DNA of 64,000 nt, taken from NCBI GenBank assembly GCA_013202975.1, contig JABMQY010000136.1:6178-70177 (forward strand), read 5' to 3'. The translations under genes were made by a program, and so were the position numbers. This stretch comes from Candidatus Saganbacteria bacterium (GTDB lineage: Bacteria > Margulisbacteria > WOR-1 > XYC2-FULL-46-14). The notes beneath the pieces are model-generated. The model saw only the letters and a list, made by a program, of their open reading frames with translations. It had not been told where the DNA came from and ran no database searches. This document shows positions 48,890 to 51,077 of the stretch, piece by piece. Within the stretch, counting starts at the first letter, position 1, and every line of letters starts with the position of its first letter.

Positions 48890-48926
48890 CAAAAATGTTC
48901 CACGTGGAACATTGTGAAACAATTTT
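48890..48926. repeat. Short copy of a CACGTG-centred palindromic element (CAAAAATGTTCCACGTGGAACAT..TGTGAAACAATT) immediately after the yidC stop
   Basis: The 23-mer is identical to 49857..49879 inside mnmE. Confidence 0.5.
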
Positions 48927-48973
48927 GGGAAGTAGGGCGGGATATTTTTGTAAATAATAAGGAGGGAGCAATC

Positions 48974-49597
48974 ATGGACAAAATTACATTCAAGGGTGGG
49001 TCGTTGGACGAGGCTATTGATGGGGCCGCAAAAGTATTGGGGATATCAAAGGATGAGATGGGCCACAGGGTTCTTGATGAGGGGAAATCGGCAATGCTGG
49101 GTATTATTGGCGGCAAGGAAACCGAGATAGAAGCATGGAAAAAGGTTCCTTTGGATGAAGAGGCTCGAGACATGATGCAGGAAATGCTTAACAAGATGCA
49201 TTTGCTTGCTGTGGCTGAGGCAAAAATAGGGGAGCAGGGAGAGGTTTTGGTGGAGGTAAAAGGAGAGGATCTTGGGCAGATAATTGGCAAAGATGGGGCT
49301 ACGCTGACCTCTCTTCAGATAGTGATTTCCACAGCGCTAAGTCGCAGGCATGCTTGCAGGGTAAGGGTTTATGTGGATGCCGGCGGCTATAAGGAAAAAC
49401 AGGCTCAGGCAATTGAGCGTATAGCAAATAGTGCCGCGAAGGATGTAGAATCGACTGGAGAAGAGAAGTTTCTTCCTCCAATGTCTCCCGCAGAAAGAAG
49501 GATTGTTCACATGGCTCTGCGCGACAATCCCAATGTAACCACCCACAGTGAAGGCGAAGGCAAGGAAAGGCGCTTGGTTATCAGCCCAAAGAAGTAG
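48974..49597 (+). CDS. jag: Jag/KhpB-like RNA-binding protein (KH + R3H domains)
   Basis: Start MDKITFKGG after AAGGAGGGA RBS. C-terminal R3H ..ERRIVHMAL... Position yidC-jag-mnmE. Confidence 0.65.
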   Translation: MDKITFKGGSLDEAIDGAAKVLGISKDEMGHRVLDEGKSAMLGIIGGKETEIEAWKKVPLDEEARDMMQEMLNKMHLLAVAEAKIGEQGEVLVEVKGEDLGQIIGKDGATLTSLQIVISTALSRRHACRVRVYVDAGGYKEKQAQAIERIANSAAKDVESTGEEKFLPPMSPAERRIVHMALRDNPNVTTHSEGEGKERRLVISPKK

Positions 49598-49601
49598 CGG
49601 T

Positions 49602-51077
49602 ATGGGCCCTGATACAATTGCTGCTATTGCTACCCCCCTAGGAACCGGTGGAATAGGGGTCATTCGTATTAGTGGTCCTTTATCATTGATTATTTGCAGA
49701 AAGCTCTTCCCCTTTAACAAGAAAATACAATCACACAGGGTCAATCACGGATGGATAAATGTTTCACGCCTGCCCGCCGAAGCCTGCCTGCCGGCAGGCA
49801 AGGCAAAATTGTTTCACGTGAAACAATTTGCGAAGGAGGGTGGAACAATTCGGGGCAAAAATGTTCCACGTGGAACATTTTTGCTTGATAATGTCCTCTA
49901 TGTCTACTTTAAATCACCAAAAAGCTACACGGGCGAGGATGTTGTCGAAATAAGCTGTCACGGCGGACCCGTTGTGTTGGGGGCGATTTTGGACGAGATA
50001 GTTAGGTTTGGGGCAAGGCTGGCCGGTCGGGGTGAGTTTACAAAGAGAGCCTTTCTAAACAAGAAGCTCGATCTTGTACAGGCAGAGGCGGTTTTGGATC
50101 TGATTCGGTCTAGGTCCCGGATGTTTGCGGAAGAGTCTGCTCAGCGGCTCAGGGGTGATCTATCCAGGCGAATTGACGCCCTGTATGCTGCCATTCTTGA
50201 TATTGTTGCTCAGCTCGAAGCAAGTATTGATTTTCCTGATGACGTGGCTCGTCCTTCAGCGAAGGGCTTAAGTGGTAAGTTAACTACTATTGTAAAGCAG
50301 ATTGACCGTTATTTGGCTGGGGTTGAGGTCGGCAGGGTTATGCGCGAGGGGGTAAAGAGCGCGATAGTTGGCGGACCCAATGTTGGTAAGTCGACTCTTT
50401 TGAATTCCCTGCTAGGAGAGGAGAGGGCAATCGTTACTCATCTTCCCGGAACCACCAGAGATGTTATTGAAGAGTCGGTTAATGTTGACGGCTTGGTTCT
50501 GAATATTGCCGATACAGCAGGAATTCGTCAGGCAAAGTGTATTATTGAGAGTGCTGGCGTTGCTCGATCAAAGGATCAGGCGAACCAGGCTGAATTGGTT
50601 TTGTTTGTCCTTGATGCTTCAAGGCCTTTGTCAAAAATGGAGAAGGGGCTTCTTTTGAGGTTGGCCGAAAAGAAATCAATTGTTATTTTAAATAAAATAG
50701 ATTTAGTTTCAAAGAGGTCAATTGATTCTATGGCAAAACTAATTTTAAATAAATATAAAATTCCCTGCATTAAGACCTGTCTCTTAAAGGGCCTGGGAGT
50801 TGAAAAGCTAAGGTCTAAAATAAGCAATGTTTTTTTGGGGAAGGCCGGGAGCATTGGCGAGACAGATGTTCTTGTTTCATCTCGCCAAAAAGAATGTTTG
50901 ATTCGAGCAAAAGAGGCATTGTTAAAATCATTGGAATCAATTAAAATAAATATGCCTGTTGATTTTGTTACAATCGATCTTAAGGGGGCGGCCGAGGCGG
51001 TAGGGGAGGTTACTGGAAAAACTGTTTCGGAAAAGGTGATTGATAAAATATTTAGTGAGTTTTGTGTGGGGAAATAA
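49602..51077 (+). CDS. mnmE: tRNA modification GTPase MnmE, carrying a ~40-aa in-frame insertion in the N-terminal domain
   Basis: MGPDTIAAIATP..GGIGVIRISGP, G-domain motifs GGPNVGKST / DTAGIR / NKID, C-terminal ..CVGK. Confidence 0.85.
   Translation: MGPDTIAAIATPLGTGGIGVIRISGPLSLIICRKLFPFNKKIQSHRVNHGWINVSRLPAEACLPAGKAKLFHVKQFAKEGGTIRGKNVPRGTFLLDNVLYVYFKSPKSYTGEDVVEISCHGGPVVLGAILDEIVRFGARLAGRGEFTKRAFLNKKLDLVQAEAVLDLIRSRSRMFAEESAQRLRGDLSRRIDALYAAILDIVAQLEASIDFPDDVARPSAKGLSGKLTTIVKQIDRYLAGVEVGRVMREGVKSAIVGGPNVGKSTLLNSLLGEERAIVTHLPGTTRDVIEESVNVDGLVLNIADTAGIRQAKCIIESAGVARSKDQANQAELVLFVLDASRPLSKMEKGLLLRLAEKKSIVILNKIDLVSKRSIDSMAKLILNKYKIPCIKTCLLKGLGVEKLRSKISNVFLGKAGSIGETDVLVSSRQKECLIRAKEALLKSLESIKINMPVDFVTIDLKGAAEAVGEVTGKTVSEKVIDKIFSEFCVGK
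49760..49885. repeat. Nested palindromic element (TGTTTCACG, CCTGCCGGCAGG, TGTTTCACGTGAAACA, ATGTTCCACGTGGAACAT) inserted in-frame within mnmE
   Basis: Encodes the extra segment NVSRLPAEACLPAGKAKLFHVKQFAKEGGTIRGKNVPRGTF, which is absent from canonical MnmE. It shares a 23-mer with the intergenic copy at 48890. Confidence 0.5.

Follow-up and report, generated by a model that had tools for sequence, protein, structure and literature searches.

ParB is a clamp whose loading at the centromere-like parS site depends on cytidine triphosphate (CTP), and the ParABS/SMC pathway in which it acts is well established. Insertion sequences that target the loops of palindromes also exist, an example being IS1397 in repetitive extragenic palindromic (REP) units. 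The consensus of chromosomal parS in Bacillus, Corynebacterium, and Burkholderia is TGTTNCACGTGAAACA (PMC7022226). Nine of the ten parS sites of Pseudomonas aeruginosa are intragenic (PMC4368675), and ParB binding to the half-sites GTTCCAC and GTTTCAC has been observed in vivo (PMC5961200). Another kind of palindromic DNA, the Rickettsia palindromic elements (RPEs), is ~150 bp long, comprises ten families, occurs in dozens of unrelated genes with 44 copies in R. conorii, and encodes a conserved peptide (PMC10969869). Here, we describe a set of nested palindromes in a 64-kb stretch of DNA from a Candidatus Saganbacteria bacterium (the window), located just past yidC and inside the essential gene mnmE.

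These palindromes are very probably chromosomal parS, that is, predicted ParB-binding centromere sites, with three full sites and three half-sites forming an origin-proximal cluster. The assignment would locate the segregation centre of an uncultivated candidate phylum. The original prediction had described a CACGTG-centred palindromic element inserted in-frame into mnmE and analogous to the RPEs, with protein-binding sites as the alternative. The nested CACGTG palindromes and the repeats that it listed are all present where it had placed them. It is the alternative that is borne out, as the sites match the parS consensus exactly and appear parS-like in every test run.

Full sites, half-sites, and their conservation

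The cluster consists of the following elements:

48896..48911: predicted parS site 1, TGTTCCACGTGGAACA, 7 nt past the yidC stop codon and upstream of jag; exact consensus match
48914..48927: orphan right half-site, GTGAAACAATTTTG (half-site letters GTGAAACA), immediately adjacent to site 1
49760..49767: orphan left half-site, TGTTTCAC, the putative left arm of an older in-gene parS; in-frame translation N-V-S-R
49810..49825: predicted parS site 2, TGTTTCACGTGAAACA, inside the cassette in mnmE; translated K-L-F-H-V-K-Q-F
49840..49847: orphan right half-site, GTGGAACA, the putative right arm of the split older site; read G-G-T-I
49862..49877: predicted parS site 3, TGTTCCACGTGGAACA, at the ancestral in-gene position; read in the other frame as K-N-V-P-R-G-T-F-L
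48891-48913, 49805-49829, and 49857-49882: sites 1, 2, and 3 with their A/T flanks, which are found likewise in relatives

The 16-bp palindrome pattern TGTTNCACGTGNAACA is present in three perfect copies, at 48896, 49810, and 49862. With up to two mismatches allowed, three occurrences are observed in the 64 kb versus 0.12 expected, and none of 100 shuffles reached three. All three sites match TGTTNCACGTGAAACA exactly, and the symmetric C/G variant closely resembles the parS of Myxococcus, TGTTCCACGTGGAACG (PMC7022226). Two of the three full sites fall in the 102-nt insert region of mnmE, where the window has one site in each of two reading frames. Symmetric A and T runs flank all 16-mers of the clade in the form AAAA[AT]-core-[AT]TTTT, and the palindrome is thus 24–26 bp long.

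Around site 1, the extended palindrome is AAAAATGTTCCACGTGGAACATT (48891–48913). The adjoining half-site at 48914–48927 repeats, letter for letter, the right arm of the 49810–49829 site, and GTGAAACAATTT is present twice (48914, 49818). The segment common to spacer and gene, which had been given as 23 nt, does recur; its measured length is 25–26 nt (48889–48913 equals 49855–49879). A GC palindrome, TGCCTGCCGGCAGGCA, is found at 49785–49800. As single-stranded DNA, 49750–49892 is predicted to adopt a nested multi-hairpin fold (z = −5.85 versus shuffles), in which the half-sites at 49840–49847 and 49760–49767 pair with each other.

Genes in this region are arranged as gyrB, dnaN, and dnaA (minus strand), followed by rnpA, yidD, yidC, jag, mnmE, and folD (plus strand). 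The cumulative GC skew turns at ~46 kb, with its minimum in the dnaA region.

45429..47047: predicted oriC region, containing dnaA (45580-46959, minus strand) and DnaA-box clusters at 45429-45575 and 46952-47047

Because the GC skew turns here and DnaA-box clusters lie on both sides of dnaA, oriC is placed 1.9–2.9 kb from the parS cluster.

The motif has also been found far outside this clade. The 21-mer AAATGTTCCACGTGGAACATT of the window is present in more than 120 contigs of unrelated metagenomes. Among 120 such contigs, none from the window's own genome and each inspected over a few kb, a ParB homolog is encoded near the 21-mer in 26, MnmE in 19, YidC in 9, and Jag in 8. These counts are far above chance for any single gene, and a predicted parS adjoining or inside mnmE is widespread. 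Tandem sites 35–70 nt apart are found in 18/120 loci and orphan half-sites in 17/120, which shows that local parS duplication is ordinary in unrelated bacteria. The special feature of the window is the coding context. Four features by which membership of chromosomal parS can be judged were thus found: the consensus, the origin-proximal location, the conservation at the DNA level described below, and the co-occurrence of the motif with parB and with genes of the origin region.

Two further features of the metagenome loci were observed. Some of the unrelated contigs carry 6–10 copies of TGTTCCACGTGGAACA in ~1–1.5 kb (L124 2802–4271, L125 122–1152, and L110 385–1291). Seven of 120 MnmE homologs (P0019, P0020, P0021, P0042, P0086, P0095, and P0112) start with, or nearly with, MFHVKH, which implies that parS overlaps the annotated start codon in these more distant homologs. 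Some of these starts may be gene-caller artefacts.

Loci of relatives were collected via MnmE and Jag homology. They are ~21 kb where long and syntenic with the window. Their protein identities to the window are:

L003: MnmE 51%, Jag 72%
L004: MnmE 57%, Jag 74%
L005: MnmE 57%, Jag no value
L007: MnmE 60%, Jag 75%
L009: MnmE 57%, Jag 75%
L131: Jag 76%, mnmE cut by the contig end
L132: Jag 72%, mnmE cut by the contig end
L133 (closest relative): Jag 80%, mnmE cut by the contig end
L135: Jag 75%, mnmE cut by the contig end
L136: Jag 52%, MnmE no value

Perfect sites are shared at the same places, namely between yidC and jag, 160–210 nt into mnmE, and often just past the mnmE stop. L004, L005, L007, L009, L131, L135, and L136 each have a perfect site in the yidC-jag spacer or overlapping the 3' end of yidC. 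The overlap with yidC is seen in more distant relatives (L136 9968–9983, L137 3358–3373, and L135 676–691). In L136 and L137, yidC appears to stop at a TGA inside the palindrome, going by where the called gene ends, while in L135 the site lies within the called yidC 3' end, the last codons of which would read KKNVSRET before the stop.

Within mnmE, site 3 of the window (49862) corresponds in the alignment to the only in-gene site of L133, L135, L132, L007, L009, L004, and L005. Across nine lineages, 14 of the 16 core bases at this position are invariant and only the two N positions vary. The identity of the core is 94%, compared with 68% for the best-conserved neighbouring codons and 45% for their third positions. 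Six lineages read these bases in frame 2 (KIVSRETIL, KNVPRGTFL) and three in frame 1 (KMFHVKHF); the third frame of the 16-mer contains TGA. Since the bases are conserved and yet translated in two frames, selection acts on the DNA and not on the peptide. The original prediction had named the same insert in orthologous proteins as evidence against it, and this applies in part: a site is indeed present at this position in orthologs, conserved as nucleotides and not as a peptide. The alignments show a putative parS at the variable beta-hairpin loop of mnmE that is ancestral to this Saganbacteria sub-clade and held by selection at the DNA level. It offers a natural example of a DNA constraint overriding the reading frame, one 16-mer having been kept in two frames through ~45% protein divergence.

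The insert in mnmE and the nested cassette

49602..51077, plus strand: mnmE, tRNA-modification GTPase, 491 amino acids, with the Pfam domains TrmE_N, MMR_HSR1, and MnmE_helical

The reading frame of mnmE is intact and all family-invariant residues are kept in the homolog alignments. The protein is 100% identical to one listed by NCBI for a Candidatus Saganbacteria metagenome-assembled genome. The in-frame insertion into this gene that had been proposed is real. It is 102 nt long (49768–49869) and is included in the independent assembly L130, which comes from another sequencing run and is 99.96% identical over 2,514 nt; the insert is therefore not an assembly artefact. The extra residues, estimated at about 40 in the original prediction, correspond to 34 codons. 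The TrmE_N domain accordingly has 151 residues, versus 117 positions in its profile, and the alignment of MnmE homologs, which had been suggested for finding the insertion borders, puts the gap between HGWI and LDNVLYVYF.

The AlphaFold2 model of MnmE, built with 57 sequences, has a mean predicted local distance difference test score (pLDDT) of 87.5 and a predicted template modelling score of 0.81. Residues ~56–91 are modelled as coil at pLDDT 44–64 between the strands 47–55 and 92–103. Thermotoga maritima TrmE (1XZP) has 5 residues at the corresponding turn. The 102-nt insertion is thus found in frame at a low-pLDDT place between two strands, and would form a tolerated surface loop of MnmE, a predicted disordered hairpin loop. 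The predicted disorder of this loop would explain why MnmE tolerates 34 extra residues. As the gene is essential, only in-frame, stop-free versions would survive.

The insert can be read as a layout of sites. The left half-site (49760–49767) is followed by the 72-nt cassette, the right half-site (49840–49847), a linker of CGGGGC and then an A-run (AAAAA) flanking the next site, and the full site at 49862–49877. When rejoined, the half-sites TGTTTCAC|GTGGAACA give a complete parS. The cassette thus divides an older site precisely at its midpoint, and this older site formed a tandem with the ancestral one. The mnmE gene of L133 reads HGWANVPRGTILDEV, with one site, and that of L132 reads KKNVSRETFLLDEV; because the single sites of both align with 49862, the latter is the ancestral position. 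These comparisons show that, in the lineage of the window, the in-gene predicted site has recently been enlarged by 102 nt through a tandem extra site and a 72-nt cassette with its own putative parS. The case shows how centromere amplification can remodel a protein loop. For annotation, the odd insert in an essential GTPase would be a by-product of the centromere, and neither a new protein feature nor a Rickettsia-type selfish repeat.

49768..49839, plus strand: 72-nt cassette, 24 codons, composed of spacer A, a GC-rich hairpin, an inner predicted parS, and spacer B
49768-49783: spacer A, GCCTGCCCGCCGAAGC (also written as GCCTGSCCGCCGAAGC)
49784-49804: extra GC-rich hairpin, CTGCCTGCCGGCAGGCAAGGC
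49805-49829: inner predicted parS with its A/T flanks
49830-49839: spacer B, GCGAAGGAGG, Shine-Dalgarno-like

Two cassette copies without the extra hairpin are found in L009, at 9287–9340 and 11370–11425. They are intergenic, lie on either side of jag-mnmE in opposite orientations, and each interrupts, at its midpoint, a site that is whole in the sister genome L007. Aligned with these two copies, the window cassette matches at 50/51 and 52/53 positions (~98%), including 25/26 in the spacers, although MnmE is only 57% identical. A related 51-nt in-frame variant with symmetrised spacers lies inside mnmE of L003 (1585–1635). The cassette is absent from L133, L007, L004, L005, L132, and L135, which have simple sites only. 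In four copies, covering both orientations, homology ends abruptly and precisely at CAC|GTG of the host site. Beyond the L009 and L003 copies, the non-parS spacers were not found elsewhere in the window, in the 129 loci, or in the viral collection.

Presence/absence polymorphism, sharp boundaries, and near-identical copies in diverged genomes were found for the 51–72-nt cassette only. To this extent the idea of an inserted element holds, as there is a discrete 72-nt cassette whose spacers are shared with L009 and which closer relatives lack; the dispersed RPE-like family does not. Near-identity across deep divergence, patchy presence, and boundaries at the centre of the palindrome are, as judged from the alignments, not what neutral vertical descent gives. 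Candidate processes for the copying of the cassette would be ectopic conversion from one parS copy to another following a break at the palindrome centre, or transposition through a trans-acting factor.

Other origins of the insert were considered. A simple tandem-repeat origin of three ~51-nt units was rejected because the interiors of these units are unrelated. A comparison of the spacers by eye with structured RNA (the 16S 3' end, tRNA, and signal recognition particle RNA) and with the d(GCGAAGC) mini-hairpin gave no exact match.

Weighing the explanations

If the palindromes are parS, a cognate ParB would be their reader. According to the established ParABS/SMC pathway, ParB dimers would nucleate on each of the three full 16-bp palindromes, close as CTP-bound clamps, slide onto neighbouring DNA, and spread over the origin region. 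The resulting complex would be moved by ParA and load SMC, leading to the separation of newly replicated origins. The half-sites may contribute weak ParB binding. Some observations weigh against this assignment. In the 64-kb window and the loci of relatives, ParB, ParA, and SMC were not found by motif search, by Pfam on ten candidate open reading frames (ORFs), or by tblastn with a Spo0J/Soj sequence and seven metagenome ParBs. In addition, the conserved A/T flanks lie outside the published parS consensus, and the near-identity of the cassette spacers in distant lineages goes beyond what parS function alone explains.

The A-run and T-run flanks of all the sites could also be taken as a sign of transcription-factor operators or of RNA hairpins (terminators or attenuators) controlling a yidC-jag-mnmE operon, and a terminator scan flagged the yidC-proximal site, and only this one, as a minus-strand terminator-like hairpin. 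However, the stems are AT-rich, no Rfam family is found over the sites, and no stretch of mnmE is better conserved than the site within it, where a terminator would be harmful. Unrelated bacteria also have this 16-mer in association with parB, and control of the operon is very unlikely to be the function of the palindromes. A selfish palindromic family like the RPEs, which has no binding protein, spreads genome-wide, and entered mnmE in frame by chance, is very unlikely for similar reasons. It would account for palindromic DNA in frame in an essential gene and for a second, partial copy in a nearby spacer, but the repeated core is the universal parS 16-mer, which is present in more than 120 unrelated metagenome contigs with enrichment beside parB, and occupies orthologous positions in relatives. 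There is also no conserved element-encoded peptide, the frame varying between lineages. All copies lie at three ancestral origin-proximal parS positions (between yidC and jag, in the loop of mnmE, and just past the mnmE stop); the remaining ~60 kb of the window and the ~21-kb loci of relatives have none outside the yidC-mnmE-folD cluster. In the sequence examined, the absence of copies away from these positions argues against a dispersed repeat, and the RPE-analogous family of the original prediction is not retained.

A combined explanation deserves more weight, although we still consider it doubtful. Here the sites are parS, but the 51–72-nt cassette is a miniature mobile element that inserts at parS centres, regenerates the site, and moves between lineages, in which case mnmE would have received a true insertion and not undergone a local duplication. 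The sharp borders at CAC|GTG and the near-identity of the window and L009 copies despite the divergence of MnmE are in its favour. So are the simple sites in L007, whose MnmE is 77% identical to that of L009, and in L133, the closest relative of the window, and the occurrence of copies in both intergenic and coding contexts. On the other hand, only four copies are seen, in three lineages and all in the same 2.5-kb origin-proximal cluster, with no linked transposase, no clear terminal inverted repeats beyond the overall palindromy, no unambiguous target-site duplication, and no matches in the viral collection or elsewhere in the 129 loci. Conversion from an unseen conserved master copy would yield the same pattern. 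Two explanations of the cassette therefore remain, a small parS-targeting mobile unit or repeated conversion from a conserved unseen copy.

More speculatively, and with somewhat greater reserve, it can be proposed that Saganbacteria harbour a miniature mobile cassette that carries parS and inserts at the centre of existing parS. Its hops would inactivate the old site, put their own in its place, leave half-sites behind, and lengthen essential proteins, and it would be a selfish or a domesticated centromere element. If the cassette is mobile, it would represent a new route for the growth of parS clusters and an undescribed target specificity for a miniature element.

Neighbouring features and comparison with known systems

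Several neighbouring features were noted in the window. A conserved tandem DnaA-box pair, TGTGGATAA nn TGTGGATAA, is located at 51227–51246, directly upstream of the folD ribosome-binding site, and is found before folD in every relative as well (L003, L005, L007, and L009). Such a pair may place folD under DnaA control or serve as an additional origin element. In the mnmE-folD spacer, 51095–51199 forms a long imperfect inverted repeat with 44-nt arms that are 70% complementary. This repeat occupies the place of the third parS in several relatives, and its Rfam matches are at chance level only. YidC (47921–48889) has 322 amino acids in the window versus ~215 in all relatives. The difference corresponds to a lineage-specific in-frame insertion of ~107 residues between FLWIS and LATPDP (~residues 131–237, roughly 48311–48631), which is present in L130 too and contains no parS half-sites.

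L130–L135, the close relatives of the window, are contigs of only 0.66–2.5 kb centred on jag, which suggests that the repeated palindromes break metagenome assemblies here. In practice, the repeats appear to fragment such assemblies around jag and mnmE. Elsewhere in the window, a minus-strand ORF of 1,075 amino acids (21588–24815) has no Pfam match at E ≤ 1e-5, and the same applies to ORFs of 237–301 amino acids at 15978–16727, 16704–17441, 61878–62615, 26066–26779, 6898–7803, and 9332–10237.

The predicted sites resemble described chromosomal parS, such as the ten Spo0J sites of B. subtilis and parS1-4 of P. aeruginosa, in that the 16-bp palindrome is identical to the consensus. Clustering within a few kb at oriC, partly intragenic positions, half-sites, and an association with parB in other motif-bearing genomes are also shared. 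They differ from described parS in their host, as the literature searches returned no parS description for Candidatus Saganbacteria and nothing relevant on Saganbacteria ParB, MFHVKH, or nested parS insertions. They also differ in that a site has long been kept in one mnmE loop in alternative frames, that the extended A/T flanks are conserved, and that a cassette with a new site divides one of them through the middle.

With RPEs and intragenic miniature inverted-repeat transposable elements, the insert shares the features of a small palindromic DNA in frame in a housekeeping gene and of a peptide added where the fold tolerates it. Unlike in RPEs, the unit is 51–72 nt long, its core is a putative cis-acting site of the host, its copies are confined to pre-existing parS positions, and the encoded peptide is not conserved (KMFHVKHF versus KIVSRETIL/KNVPRGTFL, depending on the lineage). 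Insertion at the centre of a chromosomal palindrome is known from IS1397 and ISKpn1 in the loops of REP units and bacterial interspersed mosaic elements. These are full transposase-encoding insertion sequences, whereas the cassette is non-coding, with no transposase known for it, and copies the very site that it targets. In summary, a parS that overlaps coding sequence in an uncultivated phylum is a known kind of site, and the parS cassette nested at the centre of another parS is the potentially novel part.

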